A stretch of 64,000 nt of DNA from Mustelus asterias (taxonomy: Eukaryota): the NCBI RefSeq assembly GCF_964213995.1, contig NC_135802.1, forward strand, positions 150,474,001-150,538,000, in the 5' to 3' direction. The notes below the pieces were generated by a model. The model worked only from the letters and a program-made list of their open reading frames with translations, had not been told where the DNA came from and made no database searches. Of the stretch, positions 3,176-58,954 are shown piece by piece. The translations under genes and the position numbers were made by a program. The first letter of the stretch is position 1. The number at the start of each line of letters is the position of its first letter.

Positions 3176-3335
3176 TTGATTTGATTTATTCTTGTCACAT
3201 ATGAAAAGTATTGTTCTTTCATGCTATACAGACAAAACATACCGTTCATAGAGTACATAGGGGAAAAGGAAAGGAGAGAGTGCAGAATGTAGTGTTACAG
3301 TGATAGCTTGGGTGTAGAGAAAGATCAACTTAATT
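3176..3335 (-). mobile_element. Rex/Babar-like LINE 3' UTR fragment
   Basis: gatttgatttatt...gaaaagtattgtt...aaagatcaacttaat, same as the 3' end of the element at 44930-46090. Confidence 0.75.
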
Positions 3336-5358: not shown

Positions 5359-6598
5359 AAGGGATGAGACAATTTTGTCTTTTAAAACCTTTACTGTAAC
5401 AAATGACTGAGGAAACACTGTTGGTGAACACTTTGTTTTGTAGACAACTTAAAGTGACATTCCTCTTGTGTAATAATTCTTGTTCACTAGTTAAGGAAAA
5501 AAATAATAACACCTTTATTTACTGGCAAAGGCTATACAGAGGCTTGCAACCTCTGTCTGCAGCCAACTCCCAAAAAGGTTCTGAAACAAACCCATGCTGA
5601 TCAGGGCGATTTCCCCCACCCTGCTCCCCAGCGGTTCCCCAGGTCATGTGACCCCTTACTCTGCTGATTGATCCTTAAAGGGACAATCAGCACATCTTGT
5701 ATACTTATCACCCATCGCACCCTCCATGGAATTACAGTAGGTTTAGCAAACAGTTCACAGTTGCTGCCGGCTTCTAATGGGTTCCAATGTCCCCATTTCG
5801 CCGAGTAGGAGCTTCAATCGAAAGCTTCCAGGTACTTCCCTTATTTTTCAACAGTTTCTTAAATCCACTACCCGTAGGAAACCACCTCCTTCTTCCCAGC
5901 CCTATCAGAACAAATTTCCTGGAATCCATTGAAGACTGCAGGATCTCTTTGATCAGAGACTACGGGCAGGATTTTCTGGCTATGCTCGCCCCAAAATTAG
6001 AAAATCAATGGATGTTTGCATGGTCCCCCACCTACCGTCTGCTGCGATTCCCATGGAGGGTGGGATGAGAAAATTCCCACCCATTTCCCTGGCCTGGCTG
6101 AAGTAGCTCAGAAGAATCAAGCGGCTTTTTCTCTCTTCCTGACCACACAGATCTCCTGTCGGTTGGAAATATTCAAAGATTTGTAGGGAAGCTTGTAACC
6201 TGATCTCAAAAATGGCTTCCTCTTTTCTCTTCCCACCACAACATGAAACATACAACCCTGTATTCAGGTAGAAATGCTAATCAGCTATTTGGGAGTTCAA
6301 CTCTCTTTCATCTTGGAAGTAACTGGACCATTTACAGCCCAATTGTTTACAACTGTTAACTTCAACACCTTGCTGGGAATTTGGGAGACTCAGTGTACTC
6401 ATTGCAAACCCAGAGACTTTTGTCAGTGTCTCTAAGCAGAGACATTACACCACCTTCTCAGTAAGACAAACCATGCCTTTCTTTGATTTAGAACAGGCTT
6501 ACCATCAGGCAGACTGCAGGACAGGTCACATCAACCCCCCTCTCATTTACCCTAAATTTAAGCAACATTCCAAAATATAATAATCTTATAAACATCAT

Positions 6599-10669: not shown

Positions 10670-10846
10670 CTTGATTTGATTTATTATTCTCACATGTATT
10701 GGGACACAGTGAAAAGTATTGTTTCTTGCACACTGTGCAGGCAAAGCATACCATTCATAGAGTACATAGGGGAGAAGGAAAGGAGAGGGTGCAGAATGTA
10801 GTGTTACAGTCACAGCTAGGGTGTAGCGAAAGATCAACTTAATATA
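10670..10846 (-). mobile_element. Rex/Babar-like 3' fragment interrupted by the CR1 (continues 13267-13307)
   Basis: Joining 10846 to 13267 restores aacttaatata-aggtaggtccattcaaaagtctg as seen uninterrupted at 22177-22210. Confidence 0.85.
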
Positions 10847-13266
10847 GATTGGAATATCCCTAGGGCTAGGGGTTTGGATGGAGAGGAGTTTGTTAGGTGT
10901 GTCCAGGAGAGTTTCCTGACACAGTATGTGGATAAGCCTACTAGAGGAGAGGCTGTACTTGATCTGGTGCTGGCTAATGAACCTGGACAGGTGGAGGATC
11001 TCTCGGTGGGTGAGCATCTTGGGGATAGCGATCATAATTCTATCTCCTTCACGATAGCATTGGAAAGAGATAGGATCAGGCAGGCTAGGAAAGTGTTTCT
11101 CTGGAGTAAAGGGAAATACAGTGTCATCAGGGAGGAAATTAGACGGGTAAATTGGAAGGAGGCATTCTTGGGGAAAAGTACCGAAGGAAAGTGGAGGATT
11201 TTCAAGGAATGTTTGTCTGGAGCTCTGCATGACAACGTTCCGATGAGACAGGGGGGTGTTGGTAGGGTACGGGAACCGTGGTGCACGAAGGTTGTGATGA
11301 ACCTGGTGAATAAAAAAAGAGAGGCGTACAGAAGGTTCAGAGAGCTAGGAGGTGTTAAGGATTTAGAGGAGTATACGGGATGTAGGAAGGAGCTTAAGAA
11401 GGAAATTAGGAGAGCGAGAAGGGGTCATGAGAAGACCTTGGCGGGTAAGATTAAGGAGAATCCCAAGGCTTTCTACAAATATGTCAAGAGTAAAAGGATG
11501 AGATGTGAAGGCATAGGACCCTTGAAAGGTGAAGGGGGAAAAGTTTGTGCGGAACCGTTAGAAATGGCGGAGGTGCTTAATGAATACTTTACCTCGGTAT
11601 TCACGGTGGAAAGGGATCTGGGTGGTTGTACTGCTGGTTTGCGGTGGACAGAAAGGATCGAGCATGTGGACATAAAGAAAGAGGATGTGTTGGAACTATT
11701 GAATGGCATCAAGGTTGGTAAGACGCCGGGGCCGGATGGGATGTACCCCAGGTTACTGTGGGAGGCGAGGGAGGAGATTGCGGAGCCTTTGGCGATGATC
11801 TTTGCATCGTCGATGGAGACGGGAGAGGTTCCGGAGGATTGGAGGATTGCAGATGTGGTCCCTATATTCAAGAAAGGGAACAGGGACAGCCCGGGAAATT
11901 ACCGACCGGTGAGTCTAACCTCAGTGGTTGGTAAGTTGATGGAGAGGATCCTGAGAGACAGGATTTATGATCATCTAGAGAAGTTTAGTATGATCAAAAG
12001 TAGTCAGCACGGCTTTGTCAAGGGCAGGTCGTGCCTTACGAGCCTGGTTGAGTTCTTTGAAAATGTGACCAAACACATTGACGAAGGAAGAGCGGTGGAT
12101 GTGGTCTATATGGACTTCAGCAAGGCGTTCGATAAGGTCCCCCATGCAAGACTTCTTGAGAAAGTGAGAGGGCATGGGATCCAAGGGGCTGTTGCCTTGT
12201 GGATCCAGAACTGGCTTGCCTGCAGAAGGCAGAGAGTGGCTGTGGAGGGGTCTTTCTCTGCATGGAGGTCAGTGACCAGTGGAGTGCCCCAGGGATCTGT
12301 TCTGGGACCCTTGCTGTTTGTCATTTTCATAAATGACCTGGATGAGGAAGTGGAGGGATGGGTTGGTAAGTTTGCTGACGACACCAAGGTAGGTGGTGTT
12401 GTGGATAGTTTGGAGGGATGTCAGAAGTTGCAGCGAGACATAGATAGAATGCAAGACTGGGCGGAGAAGTGGCAGATGGACTTCAACCCGGATAAGTGTG
12501 TAGTGATCCATTTTAGCAGATCCAATGGGATGAAGCAGCAGTATAATATGAAGGGTACCATTCTTAGCAGTGTAGAGGATCAGAAGGACCTTGGGGTCCG
12601 GGTCCATAGGACTCTTAAATCGGCCTCGCAGGTGGAGGATGCGGTCAAGAAGGCGTACGGCGTACTAGCCTTCATTAATCGAGGGATTGAGTTTAGGAGT
12701 CGGGAGATAATGCTGCAGCTTTATAGGACCCTGGTTAGACCCCACTTGGAGTACTGCGCGCAGTTCTGGTCACCTCATTACAGGAAAGATGTTGAAGCCA
12801 TTGAAAGGGTGCAGAGGAGATTTACAAGGATGTTGCCTGGATTGGGGGGCATGCCTTATGAGGATAGGTTGAGGGAGCTTGGTCTCTTCTCCCTGGAGAG
12901 ACGAAGGATGAGAGGTGACCTGATAGAGGTTTACAAGATGTTGAGAGGTCTGGATAGGGTAGACTCTGAGGCTATTTCCAAGGGCTGAAATGGTTGCTAC
13001 GAGAGGACACAGGTTTAAGGTGCTGGGGAGTAGGTACAGAGGAGATGTCAGGGGTAAGTTTTTCACTCAGAGGGTGGTGGGTGAGTGGAATCGGCTGACG
13101 TCGGTGGTGGTGGAGGCAAACTCGTTGGGGTCTTTTAAGAGACTTCTGGATGAGTACATGGGATTTAATGGAATTGAGGGCTATAGAAAGGCCTAGAGGT
13201 GGGGATATGATCGGCGCAACTTGTGGGCCGAAGGGCCTGTTTGTGCTGTGGCTTTCTATGTTCTAT
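10847..13266 (+). mobile_element. Young 5'-truncated CR1 LINE: ORF2 reverse transcriptase, one frameshift, 3' UTR and (TTCTATG)n tail
   Basis: 704-aa ORF 10874..12988 with PGPDG, YMDFSKAFDKV, GVPQGSVLGPLLF and FADD motifs; C-terminus continues in ORF 12990..13196 (TRGHRFK...FFTQRVV..WN); tail tttctatgttctata. Confidence 0.96.
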
Positions 13267-19834: not shown

Positions 19835-21238
19835 TTTAATTCATTTACTGGATGTTGATGTTGCTGGCTAGGCCAGCATTTATTGCCCATCCCTAGTTGC
19901 CCTTCAGAAGGTGGTGGTGAGCTACCTTCTTGAACCGCTACAGTCCCTGAGGTGTAGGTACACAGTAAGAGTTTTAACAACACCAGGTTAAAGTCCAACA
20001 GGTTTATTTGGTAGCAAATACCATTAGCTTTCGGAGCGCTGCTCCTTCGTCAGATCTGATGTCCATCTGACGAAGGAGCAGCACTCCGAAAGCTAACGGT
20101 ATTCGCTACCAAATAAACCTGTTGGACTTTAACCTGGTGTTGTTAAAACTCTTACTGTGTTCACCCCAGTCCAACGCCGGCATCTCCACATCATGACTAC
20201 CGTGTAGGTACACCCACAGTGCTGTTCGGGATGGAATTTCAGGATTTTGACCCAATGACAATGGAGGAATTTTGAAGTCAGAATGGTGAGTTACTTGGAG
20301 GGGAATCTTCAGGTGGTGGTATTCCCAGTATCTGCTGCTCTTGTTCTTCGAGATTGTAGTGATCATGGGTTTGGAAGGTGCTGTCGAAGGAGCCTTGGTG
20401 AGTTCCTGCAGTGCATCTTGTGGATGTTATACACTGCTGCCACAGTTGGTCGGAGGGATTGCACATTTGTGGAAGAGGTAGCAATCAAATGGGTTGCTTT
20501 GTCCTGGATGGTGTGGAGTTTTCTGAGTGTTGTTGGAGCCACACTCAATCAGTCAAGTGGAGAGTATTTCATTACACTCCTGACTCGTGCCTTGTAGATG
20601 CTGGACAGGCTTTGTGGGGTCAGGAGGCGAGTTACTCACCACCTGATTCCCAGCCTTTGACCTGCTCTGGTAGCCACAGTATTTATATGGCTAGACCAAT
20701 TCAGTTTCTATTCAATGGTAAATCCCAAGATGTTGATAGTGGGGAATTCCGTGATGGTAATGCCATTGAATACAGAGGGGCAATCCTTCGATCCTCTCTT
20801 GCTGGAGATGGTTATAGCCTGGCATTTGTGTGGCGTGAATGTTATTTGCTGCTTGTCAGCCCAAGCCTGGATATAGTCCCGATCTTGGGCATGGGCTTCT
20901 TCAGTATCTGAGGAGTCACGAATGGTGCTGAACATTGTGCAATTATCTGCAAACATCCCCACTTCTGATCTGATGATGGAAAGAAGGTTATTGATGAAGC
21001 AGCTAAAGATGGTTGGGCCTAGGACACTCCCCTGAGGAATTCCTGCAGTGATGTCCTGGAGCTGAGATGATTGGCCTCCAACCACCACAGCCAGCTTCCT
21101 TTACACGAGGTATGAGTCCAACCAGCGGAGATTCCCACTCCCCTGATACTCATTGACTCCAGTTTTGCTAAGGTTCCTTGATGCCACACTCAGTCAAATG
21201 CTGCGTTGATGTCAAGGGCAGTCACTCCCACCTCACCT
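19835..21238 (-). mobile_element. CR1/L2-superfamily LINE, second family: RT C-terminal part and 3' tail
   Basis: ORF 20708..21088: ITAGIPQGSVLGPTIFSCFIN...GMFADNCT...WADKQQITF; tail shared with the family-2 SINE; interrupted at 19964-20201. Confidence 0.88.
19964..20201. mobile_element. Palindromic Penelope-like element, family A, 12-bp TSD
   Basis: TSD gtgtaggtacac at 19952-19963 and 20202-20213; about 90-bp inverted arms; hammerhead core ctgacga...gaaagcta at 20067-20095. Confidence 0.85.
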
Positions 21239-24597: not shown

Positions 24598-24930
24598 AGA
24601 CATTAAAAACACAGGAAATTGTTAGATCGACTTAGAAAGATACGGACTGAAATTATTTGCTGGAAAATCTGACCAGACATTCAACAGGCTAAAAGAATTA
24701 CTCAAATTTATTAGAAAATCAAATGGAGCTATAACATGCAATAACCCTGATTGATAGAAATCTTGTTCTGAGTTTTCCTGGAGCTTACAACAGTCATTAT
24801 CTAGTATTTGGAGCAACCCCAGAATTTCTCTGCATCGTATCCTTCCAACAGGCACCTCTCTCCCCCCCCCCCCCCCCCCAGAACTGTTTGGTCTGGGCAG
24901 TGCCCACCCCACCACTGCCCCCTCCATGTA

Positions 24931-25008
24931 CCTGTTGGACTCTAATCTGGTGTTGTTAGACTCCTTACTGTATTTACCCCAGTCCAACGCTGGCATCTCC
25001 ACATCATG
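24931..25008 (+). mobile_element. Tail-only Penelope-like family A insertion, 11-bp TSD
   Basis: TSD ccctccatgta at 24920-24930 and 25009-25019; body cctgttggac...ccagtccaacgctggcatctccacatcatg. Confidence 0.82.
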
Positions 25009-36313: not shown

Positions 36314-36764
36314 CTCTATGTATATAATATCTATCTACCTCCAAGCCCACCATTTGGAAACAAGAACTCACAACAGCTGTACTGTCTCACTCTGTCATTG
36401 TGAGGCCACTGTCATAACCTATCATTTTGGGTTTTTTCTTTAAATGGATTTATAATGTTGCTTAAGAAAATGGATCAGACTCCTAAAAAATGACAGGGAC
36501 AAGAATTGTTAAGAAGTCATTGCGTGTTCATTTGAAACAGCTCCAAGGAGTCCACAAAAAGATCAGCCATGATTTTATTGACTGGCGGAGCAGGCTCGAG
36601 GGACCAGATGGCCTACTCCTGCTCCTAGTTCTGTGAAACTAAGACGGTATGTTAGCTTCACATTGGGAATTGCAAGGAGTTGGGAGTTCCAGCTCCGTTT
36701 TAATGGAAAAATCAAAGCCTGCCATATTCTAACGCATGTGACTTTTCTTTTTTTTGGATAACAG

Positions 36765-37645
36765 GTAAATGGACGCAAAGCATTAAGGAGGTCAGTGTAA
36801 ATGAGCAGTGTAGCAACATCCTCAACAACAAACGGTTCATGCTGGACATGTTGTATGCGCAGAACAAAAAGGCAGATGATGGTGAGGAGACAGAGCTCGA
36901 GAAAAAAGAGGAGGAAAAACAGGAGTCCCTTGCCAGTCTGGCTAGCCGCATCAGCATTCTGCAGGCCAGCAAGCAGGCTTGTGAGGACAAAGTGAAAAAA
37001 ATGGAGATCGACCACTTGGAGAACCACGGCAGCGTCAAAGCTTTTACTGACAAATTCAACAGTGGCGAGCTGAGTAAAGGGCCTCCGTTATCTGATTCTG
37101 AAGTGACCACCAAGGCTGTGGACAAAATGACTGCGCAGCCCAAAACGGAATCGGATTATATTTGGGATCAGCTCATGGCCAATCCAAGGGAGCTAAAGAT
37201 CAAAGATATAGACTTCACGGACTTGGAGGAGGAGGATGATGTAGATGTGTTGGACATGGAAAATCTACTTAACTCTGGAGACACAATACTCCCTCCCCCG
37301 CCTCCCCCACTTTCCTTTATGGGCTTGCCTCCCCCTCCTCCACCCCCTACACTGTACTGCCCTCCTCCTCCCCCGGTACCTGGAGTGTCAGTGCCCCCGC
37401 CACCCCCTTTCGGCCTTCAGAAATCCGTGGGGTCACCTCACCTGCCCAGGGGTGAGCCGACATTTATCAAGAAGAAGAAAACCATCCGGCTGTTCTGGAA
37501 CGAAGTCCGACCGATTGATTGGCAGTACAAAAATCACAAGCGATGCAGGGAGCCTCTTTGGACCCGACTGGAGCCTGTAAAGGTTGACATATCCAAGTTG
37601 GAGCATCTCTTCGAATCAAAATCAAAGGAATTGCCAGTCACTAAG
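36765..37645 (+). CDS. FHOD3: FHOD3 large exon (881 nt): FH1 polyproline domain and start of FH2
   Basis: Acceptor ataacag|GT, donor AAG|gtaacg; ORF 36839..37714 with poly-Pro runs and KKKKTIRLFWNEVRP; phase 1-0. Confidence 0.97.
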
Positions 37646-38031
37646 GTAACGAGCAGTGATAAGATAAGGATGCCAGGAAAAGGGTCTCAACAAACTTGTG
37701 GAATGGGTGTATAAGTGGCACATTATAGTATGGATAATGTAAGGTGTTACTTTTAGTAGGAGGAATGAGGAGGTCACCCACTTCCTGGAGAATAAGAGGC
37801 TGTGGAGCAAAGGGATCCAGGCATAAAGACACAAATCATTAAAAGTATTAATGTAGGGTCACAAGACCAAATAAAGTGCAAACCGTTAGTTCTTTCCCAG
37901 AATAGAGTTCAGAAGCAGAGAAGTTGAGTTAAAATTATACCCAACCTTGGTTAGGTCGTACCATAACACCATGTTAAGGAGCACTGAACAAAGTCCAACA
38001 AAAGATTGGAAAGGTGGTACCAGAATCACTG

Positions 38032-41030: not shown

Positions 41031-41614
41031 TCTAATTGACCAGTGACTCCTTCCTAAGTGGGTTACATTTATCCCTCAGGCTGTCACAGTGGGAATGTGG
41101 CTTTGCTGCTGGGATAAATCTAATGTGTAGGAGCATGCTTAGGCTAATTAAGCATAATGGATTCAAGATGGCAACTAACCATTACAGCCTTTCAACTGAA
41201 CCAACCTCAAGACCTTCAATACAAAAGACATGGTTTCGTTGTCTCCAAAAGGAACACTTCTAAATGACCTATTTTGTTCCCCCATCAGCAAAACAAGTTC
41301 AAACTACCCATCAAAGCAAAATATCTTTATAATTATGCTAGTTTTTGAAATTATGGATCAGATTTACTTGAAGCAGGGCATCCCTGGCATGCATGTTGGA
41401 ATTGTTTATATATGCTTAGGTTTTAAAAGGCGAGGCAATAGGACAGTTGGAACTTGGTGAATAATGGTACAAACAAGGAGAACAATCCCACTTCTCTAAT
41501 CTCTCCACATAACTGAAACCCCTACTATTCTATCAGGCCTCCTCTGCACCTATTCCCAATAAGAGTTTTAACAACACCAGGTTAAAGTCCAACAGGTTTA
41601 TTTGGTAGCAAATA

Positions 41615-41651
41615 CCATTAGCTTTCGGAGCGCTGCTCCTTCGTCAGATGG
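41615..41651 (-). ncRNA. Minimal hammerhead ribozyme motif, antisense arm
   Basis: Exact reverse complement of 41687-41723. Confidence 0.72.
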
Positions 41652-41686
41652 AGTGGAAATGACATAGTGGAAGTGACATTTCCACT

Positions 41687-41723
41687 CCATCTGACGAAGG
41701 AGCAGCGCTCCGAAAGCTAATGG
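41687..41723 (+). ncRNA. Minimal type I hammerhead ribozyme motif (sense to FHOD3)
   Basis: CCAT-CTGACGA-A-GGAGC-AGC-GCTCC-GAA-AGCT-A-ATGG: intact CUGANGA/GAAA core, stem II GGAGC/GCTCC, stem I CCAT/ATGG, palindromic AGCT in place of stem III. Confidence 0.75.
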
Positions 41724-42254
41724 TATTTCCTACCAAATAAACCTGTTGGACTTTAACCTGGTGTTGTTAAAACTCTTACTGTGTTCACCCCAGTCCAACG
41801 CCGGCATCTCCACATCATGACTATTCCCAAGGCCATGACATTCTTTCTAAAGTGCGGTGCTCAGAGTTGAACCAGTTATTTAGCATGGACTCCAATTGTT
41901 CAAGGAGGTGACTCACCATCACCTTTCCAAGGGGAACTCCAAGTAGGTAATAAATGCTCACCTGGCTAGCAACACCCATATCTCAATAACGCCTTAACAA
42001 AACCACTTAGTGAGCCACCCTGTTGGGAATCTCCTCAAAGAATTCAAAGCTCGATTGGTAGGACATAAATCACAAATCCATGCTGGGTCTTTCTAGCTGA
42101 AATACACTATGTCCGTGTCCAGTCGCTCTGTCTCTGATAACAGATTCCAGTAACTTTGCTACAATTGACACTAAACTGGCAGGTTTCCTTGATTCTGTTG
42201 TCCCCAATCCCTGTACTTAGCAACATTGTCCTGGAACAGGGATGAGATAAAACA

Positions 42255-44729: not shown

Positions 44730-46090
44730 TTTGACGTATTATTGTCACATGTATTGGGATGCAGTGAAAAGTATTGTTTTTTGCGCACTCTAGAGACAAA
44801 ACATACCATTCATAGGATACATGGGGGAGGAGGAAAGCATAGGGTGCAGAATGTAGTATTGCAGTTACAGATAGGGTGAAGAGAAATATATGATGGGTCC
44901 ATTCAAAAGTCTGATGGCCGCAGGGAAGAATTTGATTTGATTTATTATTGTCACATGTATTAACATACAGTGAAAAGTATTGTTTCTTGCGCGCTATACG
45001 GAGAAAGCATACCGTTCATAGAGAAAGAAAAGAGAGAATGCAGAATGTAGTGATAGTCATAGCTAGGATGTAGAGAAAGATCAACTTAATGCAAGGCAAG
45101 TCCATTCAAAAGTCAGACAGCAGCAGGAAAGAAGCTGTTCTTGAGTCAGTTGGTACGTGACCTCAGACTTTTGTATCTTTTTCCCAAAGGAAGAAGGTGG
45201 AAGAGAAAATGTCTGGGGTGCGTGGGGTCCTTAATTATACTGGTTACTTTGCCGAGGCAGCGGGAAGTGTCGACAGAGTCAGTGGATGGGAGGCTGGTTT
45301 GCGTGATGGATTGGGCTACATTTATGACCTTTTGTAGTTCCTTGCGGTCTTGGGCAGAGCAGGAGCCATACCAAGCTGTAATACAACCAGAAAGAATGCT
45401 TTCTATGGTGCATCTGTAAAAGTTGGTGAGAGTCGTAGCTGACATGCCACATTTCCTTAGTCTTCTGAGAAAGTAGAGGCGTTGGTGGGCTTTCTTAACC
45501 AAAATGTTGGCATGGGGGGACCAGGACAGGTTGGTGACCTGGATAGCTAAAAACTTGAAGCTCTCGACGCTTTCTACTTCATCTGCGTTGATGTAGACAG
45601 AGGCATGTTCTCCTTTATGCTTCCTGAAGTCGATGACAATCGCCTTCATTTTGTTGACATTGAGGGAGAGATTATTTTTGCCACGCCATTTCACCAGATT
45701 CTCTATCCTATTCCTGTACTCTGTCTCATCATTGTTTGAGATCCGACCCACTACGGTGGTGTCGTCAGCAAACTTGAAAATTGAATTGGAGGGGAATTTG
45801 GCCGCACAGTCATAGGTGTATAAGGAGTATAGTTTGGGGCTGAGAACACAGTCTTGTGGGGCACTGGTGTTGAAGATGATCGTGGAGGAGGTGTTGTTGC
45901 CTATCCTTACTGATTGTGGGTCTGTGAGTTAGGAAGTTCAGGATCCAGTCGCAGAGAGAGGTGCTGAGGCCCAGGCCACGGAGTTTGGAGATGAGTTTTG
46001 TGGGAATAATGATGTTGAAGGCTGAGCTGTAGTCAATAAATAGGAGTCTGACATAGGTGCCTTTGTTATCTAGGTGTTCCAGGGTTGAGA
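44730..46090 (-). mobile_element. Rex/Babar-like LINE: RT region and 3' end, with an extra tandem 3' fragment (44730-44928)
   Basis: ORF 45146..45751 preceded by FADDTTVVG; GRISNNDETEYR...KKAHQRLYFLRRL...CTIESILSGCITAWYG. Confidence 0.9.
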
Positions 46091-46325: not shown

Positions 46326-46409
46326 TCACCTGATGAAGGAGCAGTGCTCCAAAGGCTCGTGATTCTAAATAAACCTGTTGGGCTTTAACCTGGTGTTGTG
46401 AGACTTCTT
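46326..46409 (+). mobile_element. Penelope-like family A single arm with decayed hammerhead
   Basis: tcac-ctgatga-aggagc-agt-gctcc-aaag-gctc-gtga then aaataaacctgttgggctttaacctggtgttgtgagacttctt. Confidence 0.75.
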
Positions 46410-46569
46410 CCTATGTCTTGATAGACACATGAACGGGAGGCAAACAGAGGGATAGAAACCACGTATTGGTGCAGGCCAGGTGGGCTGAAAGGCCTGTTCC
46501 TGTGCTGTTTTGTTCCTTGATCTTATCTCATCACCTCTTCTCATTCACCTGTTATGGCTCAGCAACGAC

Positions 46570-53690: not shown

Positions 53691-54344
53691 TGTATGTTGG
53701 AAGGGTGGGTTCTGTTTGTGCCCACCGCACCAGCAACTGAGTTTTTTGAAGATGTGACGCCATTTTTGTATAAATTCCATTCCCGGTTGGGATTGTGGTC
53801 GATGCAGACACGATGGGCCGAATGGCCTCCTTCTCCACTGTCGGGATTCAATGCAACATGTTCCCCGTGTAAGGAGGAGTTGGTGTGGGGTTGATGGTGG
53901 TGGAGATAGGGTACAGAAATTTCATCTGTTTAGAAGTGGCACATCACACACTCCTGGGGAGTCCTGTACAGTCATGTCTGTGTTATTTTGGTGTGGGGAG
54001 GGTTGGTTCTACTGACCCTCAAGTGATGTTGCCGTGGGAGACCCAACAAGCTGCCATGGACATTCAGGCCTCTGGTTTCCACCAAGTTTGTTCACAGTAG
54101 TAAAAAAATAATGTTGACCTGAAGTGGTGGTGCCCATGGCTGCTTCCCCCTCTCTTTGAGAAGGAATGCAGGCGGGCAATGTACTGATGTAAATACGCAT
54201 TTTCCTTTGCTATTGCACTCCTGTGATGTTTATCAGTGATGTGGTGTGTTCTAAGCATGTTGGCACCATTCTGTGAAATTACAGGTTAGTTTTTCCACAC
54301 AGACTAATTCCAGATGTAACTTCTTTTATCTGTGCTTATCTCAG

Positions 54345-54503
54345 AAAACAGCTGCCGATGGCAAGAGACAGGAAGTCATTGTGTTGGACTCCAAGCGGAG
54401 CAATGCCATTAACATTGGACTGACCGTATTACCTCCTCCAAGAACAATCAAGACTGCAATTCTGAACTTCGATGAGTACGCTTTGAACAAGGAAGGCATA
54501 GAG
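54345..54503 (+). CDS. FHOD3: FHOD3 FH2 exon (159 nt) [36 protein letters not shown]...KEGIE
   Basis: Acceptor tctcag|AAA, donor GAG|gtaggc, phase 0-0. Confidence 0.97.
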
Positions 54504-57528: not shown

Positions 57529-57542
57529 ACCATCCCAAAACA

Positions 57543-57752
57543 TGATGTGGAGATGCCGGCGGTGGACTGGGATGGGCACAATAAGAAGTCTCTCAACACC
57601 AGTTTAAAGTCCAACAAGTTTATTTGGAATCTCGAGCTTTCGGAGCACTGCTCCTTTATCAGGTGAGTGCACTTGGTGAAGGAGCAGCGCTCCAAAAGCT
57701 CGTGATTCCAAATAAACCTATCGGACTTTAACCTGGTGTTGTGAGACTTCTT
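57543..57752. mobile_element. Palindromic Penelope-like element, family A variant, tail on left
   Basis: Near-TSD accatcccaaaaca (57529-57542) vs accatctcaaaaca (57753-57766); inverted arms with decayed hammerhead cores. Confidence 0.82.
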
Positions 57753-58954
57753 ACCATCTCAAAACAACAATCTTTAACCTTGTATTTGACCATCCCCTCA
57801 CCCCTACACACAAAGGGTCCATCTTGATGGCATCACAGCGCTTAACCTGTATCAACCAGATACATGTGATAGATAGGATTTTGAATCCACCTTATATCAA
57901 TTTTTAAAGCTCTTTCTCTCACGTATATGAGAATCTTTTTCCCAGCTCATGGTTTCACCTTCTGTCATGCACCATAGTAAACCTCCTTTCTCATGACATT
58001 TAAATTTCACAGCGTTTACATGACCTAGGTTTGACTCTGTATCCTTACTAAGGTCTTCCTTGTCAGGAACAACATTACTGAGCAGGCGACCACTCTGGGG
58101 AGGGAAATATCTCTACAGGGTAGTATTTGGTTATACTCTCAGCAAAGCAGGCAGGGAGGGTACCCTGCCTCCAGGCAGTTGATCTGCTCCTGCAGTCATG
58201 TCAGGAAACTAGACTCTGACTGGAATCAGTTGTATAAATTTTCCATTGGCAAATTTCGTACTGTGCCTAAATGTCTGCCTGCCTTGTGGCAAAAATGGTT
58301 GGTGGTCAGGAATGGTGTCTTGAGGCCAACATGCCACCCGGTACTGTTAATTTGAGAACACTGCCTCCCACCCCAGTGGTCTCCATTCCCAATATCAGGA
58401 GTACTGGGAATGGGAGGAAGCCGATACTGCATTGCCCTGAGCTACTGTTGTATCTAATCTGTTGGCTGATTACCAAAGGCTCAGAAACTGGCATGATTGA
58501 GGGGGGTGGTGCGGGTGCAATGTGGGGCATGGGGTGCCAAAGGTGTGGGAGAAAGTAAATTGAAATTAAACAAAGGTTTCGAAGCAAACAGCTTGGTTCT
58601 TTTGATGCTGCAGACCCTCATTCTTGGAAGCTGTTCGGTAGTTTAGTTTGGCCCTTCGACTTTTATTCGGGTGGTCTGAGGTGCAGATGACCGAAAATGG
58701 ATTGGTGCACGAGGAGGGAGATGTTTCCAGCAACTCCTGCTCATTATTCCTAAAACGAAGCATTGGGGATCTCAAATACGTTTATCATCTTCCACCCTCC
58801 CCATCGCCAATCCCCCTCATAAGCTTGCCAGGAGACAATGCAACCAGCCAGTTTTTTTCCAACCTCTCCTGAACTAAATTACAAGGTTTCTATTTTTATA
58901 TCGTCTTTCATGGACTTCGGATGAACCGTTGTGTTTAACGCCCAATTAAATAAT

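Follow-up and report, generated by a model that had tools for sequence, protein, structure and literature searches.

Complex insertions of EN+ Penelope-like elements (PLEs) have been described for Pen2a_Av and its relatives; here and below the published systems are presented as given in the available parts of the cited papers. In these insertions, fragments of the pseudo-LTR (pLTR) lie head-to-head and are heavily truncated at the 5' side, the target-site duplication (TSD) measures 9-10 bp and a tail of 30-40 bp, present on one side only, reaches the start of the ORF (PMC3846280; PMC8557442). An insertion in an intron of FHOD3 in the shark Mustelus asterias has the same head-to-head pLTR fragments and 5' truncation, a TSD of 10 bp and a one-sided tail of 42 nt that likewise reaches the ORF start; it differs from the described insertions in that both halves are ~100 nt long and do not contain the ORF body.

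Minimal hammerhead ribozymes (min-HHRs) were reported in PLE pLTRs in 2014 (PMC4209133), and the FHOD3 copy shares with them the type I CUGANGA/GAAA/UH core, the extra nucleotide after A9, the G10.1-C11.1 pair, the palindromic tetramer at 15.2-16.2 and the short helix I, whereas its helix II has 5 bp compared to 7-8 bp in the Schistosoma min-HHR. In the same study, pairs of hammerheads on opposite strands were found ~100-700 bp apart, most occurrences being single motifs from truncated PLEs; the two FHOD3 cores are just 44 nt apart, and sharks are unnamed in the available part of that paper.

In vitro work on PAc, a Poseidon-clade PLE of Anolis, evidenced that both target strands are cut and extended, that RT starts at two sites defining the tail, with no difference in start site between strands, and that the hammerhead is dispensable for insertion (PMC11167929). 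The two start sites bound the tail where pLTR and ORF join, as in the shark element; conversely, hammerhead and tail are placed inside the ORF in PAc and upstream of the ATG in the shark. The words "microhomology" and "head-to-head" do not occur in the available text of that report. A type I hammerhead in a non-coding, pLTR-related context is also found in the animal non-LTR retrozymes (bioRxiv 10.64898/2026.07.22.740005), although these are defined by head-to-tail tandem units and the FHOD3 insert has head-to-head arms that arise afresh with every insertion. Altogether, the inverted 5'-truncated pLTR, the one-sided tail, the TSD and the opposite-strand hammerheads are already in print.

The insertion in the FHOD3 intron and its parent element

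In the window, which is the whole stretch of 64,000 nucleotides of M. asterias DNA analysed here, a 261-base hairpin is a genuine insertion, made up of the ribozyme-bearing end of a very abundant Penelope-type element in two copies placed back to back. The insert (261 bp, 41560-41820) is flanked by exact 10-bp direct copies at 41550-41559 and 41821-41830. In a contig of another, related organism (run X7, record 17), position 41549 is followed immediately by 41821; because this site is empty and uninterrupted the 10-bp repeat is a true TSD, and the insertion therefore postdates the split of the two organisms or is polymorphic. A repeat search delimited the inverted arms at 41557-41664 and 41674-41781 (108 nt, 97% complementary, with 3 mismatches, one of them within the TSD), and none of 200 shuffled sequences folded as stably as the insert (z = -29.9). 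The 261-bp insertion with its TSD, ~100-bp inverted arms and one-sided tail, as proposed in an initial annotation made from the letters alone, was thus upheld, as was its location in a FHOD3 intron, since exon blocks at 36761-37669 and 54330-54503 (+) flank it; proteins of Mustelus asterias named FHOD3 by NCBI match the exon frame 36785-37651 with 100% identity. The parts of the locus are the following:

36761..37669, + strand: FHOD3 exon preceding the host intron, delimited approximately by a tblastn block
41550..41559: left TSD, 10 bp (exact repeat; empty-site contig)
41560..41661, - strand: inverted tail-less pLTR fragment (left arm); of the family's two 3' end sites it stops at the inner one (family template)
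41615..41651, - strand: minimal type I hammerhead, C3 at 41647, predicted cut after 41619; its 37-nt string is identical to the + copy
41662..41675: junction filler, 14 nt, resembling short copies of the arm ends, its last letter a non-template G (sequence)
41676..41778, + strand: sense pLTR fragment (right arm), whose start, 15 nt upstream of hammerhead C3, coincides with a frequent 5' stop; 92% identical to the L097 pLTRs
41687..41723, + strand: minimal type I hammerhead, sense to FHOD3, C3 at 41691, H17 = A41719
41779..41820, + strand: one-sided tail, 42 nt, ending on the start codon of the element's ORF (41817-41819), by the L097 5' pLTR/ORF junction
41821..41830: right TSD, in whose first 3 nt the ORF-start template of the element carries on (microhomology; sequence)
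54330..54503, + strand: FHOD3 exon following the host intron, delimited approximately by a tblastn block

Four further ends of the same element are present within the window (19960-20199, 57541-57754, 46327-46416 and 24930-25008), comprising two palindromes, each with one tailed and one tail-less arm, one single arm and one tail fragment. The FHOD3 introns also hold LINE-type RT frames (RVT_1) of 722 and 260 aa at 10820-12988 (+) and 45146-45928 (-), and the right arm contains an AATAAA at 41736-41741, sense to FHOD3, that would be base-paired in the hairpin.

The right arm with its tail has near-identical copies genome-wide (888 candidates, 40 of them scored). A 38-nt pattern from the upstream part of one copy's longer inverted arm gave 2,181 exact matches in the genome, and the loci bearing it lead upstream into RT and GIY-YIG frames, which are the young subfamily's own upstream sequence. 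In the full-length copy L097, a 5' pLTR (3192-3323) and a 3' pLTR (6201-6338), both 92% identical to the insert, flank in partial tandem an ORF of 892 aa that begins at the ATG where the insert's tail ends; the same arrangement is seen in L098 and L110. This ORF matches RVT_1 (E 6.7e-10) and, in its last 172 aa, GIY-YIG (E 2.7e-4; 21.6 bits, just below the Pfam cut-off of 22.6), PF01541 being carried by many of its homologues; a PDB search with the 892-aa sequence returned 0 matches. The Penelope origin and the RT plus GIY-YIG partner foreseen in the initial annotation were therefore found, and the linkage to a DNA transposase, named there as the outcome that would speak against them, is not the case. 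A C-x4-C-x2-C linker at residue 754 stands ahead of GIY-YIG motifs at 791 and 805, and a CX2-5CxxC motif between RT and EN marks the Neptune and Nematis clades (PMC8557442); based on this linker and on Neptune being the vertebrate clade, the element appears to be Neptune-type. A single ORF with RT and C-terminal GIY-YIG, the pLTRs, and an inverted 5'-truncated copy with one-sided tail and TSD are all present, and by these tested features of its sequence the insert is classed as an EN+ PLE insertion.

Two observations concern the ORF in other contexts. Gene models annotated as NOXP20-like in Mustelus asterias and as zinc-finger proteins in turtle include pieces of the PLE ORF (P0156, P0147-P0149), probably by annotation read-through, and at L102 (C19, 27.05 Mb) an open frame of 1,918 aa links a tandem repeat to the PLE ORF that follows it in frame.

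Outer ends and the origin of the palindrome

The family was sampled in a grid of 100 stretches of 10 kb (L117-L216), which gave 107 arms in 67 insertions, the arms being called against one reference so that old copies were missed. The outer 3' ends of these arms fall at two fixed sites ~40 nt apart (49 at the tail site, 43 tail-less and 15 other). Adjacent head-to-head pairs combine the two types almost without exception: 21 were tail/tail-less, 1 tail/tail and none tail-less/tail-less, the remaining 9 having an unclassified end (p = 1.1e-5). A second set of 147 loci chosen by internal patterns represents 130 distinct insertions, 86 of them head-to-head, and here all 64 classifiable pairs were mixed (22 were unclassifiable). 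Tail/tail exceptions are L020, from the top matches, and L184, from the grid sample. A TSD was called in 46 of the 64 mixed pairs, mostly of 10-17 nt counting microhomology, and target and template overlap by at least 2 nt at the tail end in 25/46 and at the other end in 28/46, compared to 17% in simulation; this estimate follows a maximal-extension rule, drops the 18/64 pairs without a called TSD and includes two 12-nt values that are probably miscalls.

The reading that we favor, to which a probability of about 0.7 is assigned, is that the FHOD3 copy is one short, 5'-truncated EN+ Penelope-like insertion, whose mirror half likely derives from two RT events primed on both nicked strands and whose hammerheads are both predicted to be inactive in the hairpin. 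According to this model, the GIY-YIG domain would make a staggered cut of ~10-14 nt in the target, and each target 3'-OH would pair by 1-3 nt with the ORF-bearing element RNA, one primer at the tail site and the other ~40 nt upstream. Both cDNAs would stop just upstream of the hammerhead, possibly at the 5' end of the RNA, and would then be joined with microhomology or filler; the hammerhead would be selected in master elements and a passenger in the FHOD3 copy. Twin priming is the simplest model because one arm is tailed and the other tail-less, because microhomology is found at both ends and because of the in vitro results obtained with the anole PLE; dual priming is inferred here from the end products.

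The strongest competitor retains the same element, but in it a single cDNA, or an antisense template, would fold back and prime itself to give the inverted arm, the endonuclease resolving the intermediate into the tail. In Adineta elements, palindromes seen where copies join in inverted orientation had led to the proposal of such an origin (PMC3846280), with the tail attributed to EN-mediated resolution (PMC8557442); perfectly symmetric centres are present among the shark copies, and the one-tail asymmetry would follow naturally, given asymmetric resolution. However, the two arms often begin at widely separate template positions (e.g., 2518/2862 and 2954/2434), filler is found at centres and microhomology is enriched at both outer ends, as expected of two primers, so that fold-back is considered unlikely, at well under an even chance.

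The rule of one tail per pair and the two-ended microhomology, quantified here for the shark copies, were not found in the available parts of PMC3846280 and PMC8557442, and no account of shark PLE palindromes or of Penelope twin priming was found in the literature searched, subscription papers such as Arkhipova 2006 lying outside it. The pairing of end sites may already be shown in Fig. S2 of PMC11167929; the fresher part of the present observations is the near-constant pairing of tailed and tail-less arms together with microhomology at both target ends.

Size range, inner ends and abundance

From the grid sample ~250,000 insertions are estimated genome-wide (190,000-310,000, Poisson only), the family representing ~3.3% of the sampled bases, and the check on genome-wide copy number suggested by the initial annotation thus revealed a very abundant element. 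Head-to-head pairs occur at 24 per Mb, equivalent to ~88,000 near-perfect hairpins of at least 100 bp (57,000-131,000, Poisson only), and 13 of 24 simple pairs include the hammerhead on both arms, or ~48,000 double-hammerhead palindromes in the genome. An adjacent inverted arm is missing in 36/67 insertions of the grid sample and in 44/130 of the second set. Arm length is continuous from <100 bp to >2 kb and reaches into the ORF; at the long end of the series, L111 (C3, 73.33 Mb) is a head-to-head palindrome with two ~2.4-kb arms, each carrying an open frame of 788 aa.

The centres of the palindromes vary as well. Among the best 30 matches, 25 have an adjacent inverted arm and these show 19 different centre types (counted by eye, with a query that favoured arms with the same start position); the insert's 14-nt filler is absent, by eye, from the 24 other palindromic top matches, and some centre junctions recur, one of them common to 4 copies. 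At the opposite extreme of the arms, tail ends track the ORF-start template beyond the ATG in 8/46 pairs and in the FHOD3 copy. Because of the variable centres, the continuous size series and the tail matching the ORF start, the stub is best read as a truncated product of an ORF-bearing RNA.

Concerning the inner ends, the start of the right arm (41676 type) is a frequent stop, used by 296/9,761 arms (3.0%) vs 28/12,423 (0.23%) at an upstream control. Of the first 100 of these 296 rows, 58 have a G just before this start, as do 51/93 after removal of duplicates, both counted by eye; a scripted count gave 16 of the first 30 rows vs 5/28 at the upstream control. A frequent stop behind a non-template G would fit run-off at a capped 5' end, a reading confounded by a G that precedes a start 8 nt downstream just as often (53/98 by eye, where the opposite arm is G-rich) and by the breadth of the stop zone, since 102 arms stop two nt earlier, 296 at the site itself and 339 one nt later, which describes no spike. 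Penelope of D. virilis carries an internal promoter, and an intron of 75 bp lies 46 bp past its start (PMC2377424). In the shark copy, a 71-nt GT...AG stretch at 41723-41793 opens 47 nt past the frequent 5' stop, its end lying 23 nt upstream of the ATG; it is a possible 5' UTR intron, a candidate whose GT varies across subfamilies, and no GT-AG joint was seen among 15 of 100 joints between L097 and contigs of four runs whose nature is unknown or guessed.

These data bear on the proposal of the initial annotation that the insert is a non-coding Penelope derivative mobilised in trans, read here as a discrete mini-element (SINE- or retrozyme-like) whose palindrome would be transcribed and moved as one unit. 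Its attraction is that many palindromes are short and have both their inner ends close to the hammerhead (~9/19 simple pairs), that stops concentrate at the insert's start site relative to the upstream control, and that non-autonomous retrozymes derived from PLEs have been reported (bioRxiv 10.64898/2026.07.22.740005). However, a unit copied whole should have a fixed structure and the copies have no common centre, their sizes continue into the ORF, their tails match the template past the ATG and head-to-tail tandems are absent; furthermore, a 100-bp hairpin would presumably be a poor RT template. The length of short arms in diverged subfamilies may be underestimated, since BLAST alignment to a single reference breaks off at the hammerhead. 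The proposal of a family mobilised as a unit is accordingly not supported and the chance that it is right is judged to be small, although a minor fraction of copies may be mobilised in trans. As for other classes, a non-LTR retrozyme was rejected given that arms are only head-to-head and tandem hammerhead units are lacking, and a MITE or DNA transposon given the one-sided tail and a partner with RT and GIY-YIG instead of a transposase.

The hammerhead in the family and in the FHOD3 copy

As anticipated in the initial annotation, the hammerhead string is exact on both strands (+ 41687-41723 and - 41651-41615) and is of the minimal type I with a predicted cut at 41719: the + copy has a stem I of 4 bp, a stem II of 5 bp, an extra A between A9 and G10.1, a palindromic tetramer at 41715-41718 and H17 at 41719, in agreement in core letters, tetramer and H17 = A41719. 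The library scan it recommended was negative, no hammerhead being among the 9 Rfam matches at E<=10, so that the ribozyme is identified from its motif, its fold and comparison within the family.

Among 98 anchored arms, 59 match the core, with H17 being U in 24, A in 21, C in 14 and G in none of these 59; N7 shows all four letters and loop II varies, and the tetramer is constant in 59/59. Pair 2.1-1.1 is C-G in 27 and U-A in 15 of 46 distinct rows chosen for an intact core, a switch that probably represents one evolutionary event; stem covariation was reached in 0/500 shuffles for cells changed on both sides and in 157/500 for the number of such pairs. Compared across subfamilies, these sequences vary in the way expected of a hammerhead that selection maintains in master elements. 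Core conservation, whose lack among genomic copies had been set beforehand as an argument against the ribozyme, is therefore supported at the subfamily level, in the constraint on the core across arms, and not at the level of copies: in 53 young copies 20/689 core letters vs 72/3431 non-core letters were changed (2.9% vs 2.1%, p = 0.20), and all 13 core letters were kept in 35/53. After insertion, the core decays neutrally like its neighbours.

Arms starting at the predicted cut number 422/36,094, with 248, 347, 78 (stricter filter) and 140 at positions -2, -1, +1 and +2; after correction for spill-over, ~950 arms start at the cut vs 215-306 at its neighbours, which is 3.8-fold over the four-neighbour mean and ~2.6% of young arms. 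The preceding letter at the cut is G in 10 of the first 100 of the 422 rows (by eye). A site 5 nt downstream scores higher than the cut (1,544 at +5, with 372 at +10), both counts being inflated by other subfamilies and AT palindromes. The cut-site peak is confounded by the self-complementary words and stem I, which provide built-in microhomology, and it is not seen in the first 30 of 502 rows of the older C-G subfamily, where 4 arms start at the cut, 6 at +1 and 7 at +2. In L309, L313, L317, L319/320, L322, L324, L326/327 and L330/331 both arms end <=2 nt from the predicted cut; such palindromes fit two cDNAs of one cleaved RNA, and their centre word is self-complementary.

A wider reading may be drawn from these ends, namely that the palindromes record twin priming on one RNA, with one RT start site per nick, and that the inner ends map RNA 5' ends, namely a capped start just upstream of the hammerhead, marked by the extra G, as well as the cut made by the hammerhead in 2-3% of young arms. 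This wider reading is tentative and more doubtful than not, and twin priming by itself has a higher probability than the whole with recorded RNA ends.

With regard to the FHOD3 transcript, whichever strand is transcribed, the antisense arm precedes the ribozyme-sense arm and has been synthesised before the ribozyme appears. In the isolated 37-mer, stems I and II form with a predicted probability of 0.95-1.0; in the full context this falls to <1e-18, and imposing the hammerhead fold on the hairpin would cost ~69 kcal/mol, in equilibrium predictions that ignore proteins, the anole hammerhead being protein-assisted. A second same-sense hammerhead to form a dimer is absent from the insert, and min-HHR monomers did not cleave in vitro while dimers were weak (PMC4209133). 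Because the antisense arm is made first, the hammerhead fold is costly and monomers are inert in vitro, cleavage of the FHOD3 pre-mRNA at 41719 is unlikely, both ribozymes being, according to the folding model, locked in the hairpin. Thus, the earlier suggestion that the complementary arm silences the ribozyme agrees with the predicted folding energies, but transcription of either strand is not expected to yield a working ribozyme. That the sense hammerhead is nonetheless active in FHOD3 pre-mRNA and affects its processing is hardly to be expected: its core letters are complete, it is in sense orientation and it folds in isolation, but the same site is empty in a related organism and copies of the family decay neutrally, in addition to the order of the arms and the missing dimer partner. 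The preferred reading of the FHOD3 copy as a truncated insertion with inactive hammerheads is kept.

The single locus matters little, as one of ~50,000 double-hammerhead palindromes that is predicted to be inert as a ribozyme, and the family is of modest importance, for the question of how PLEs make inverted repeats and one-sided tails. The near-absolute pairing of tailed with tail-less arms is a sharp constraint that can be tested in the existing in vitro PLE system. If the inner ends do record RNA ends, they would constitute genomic evidence of a minimal hammerhead cleaving in living cells. The ~88,000 long hairpins could also supply sharks with large amounts of intronic double-stranded RNA.
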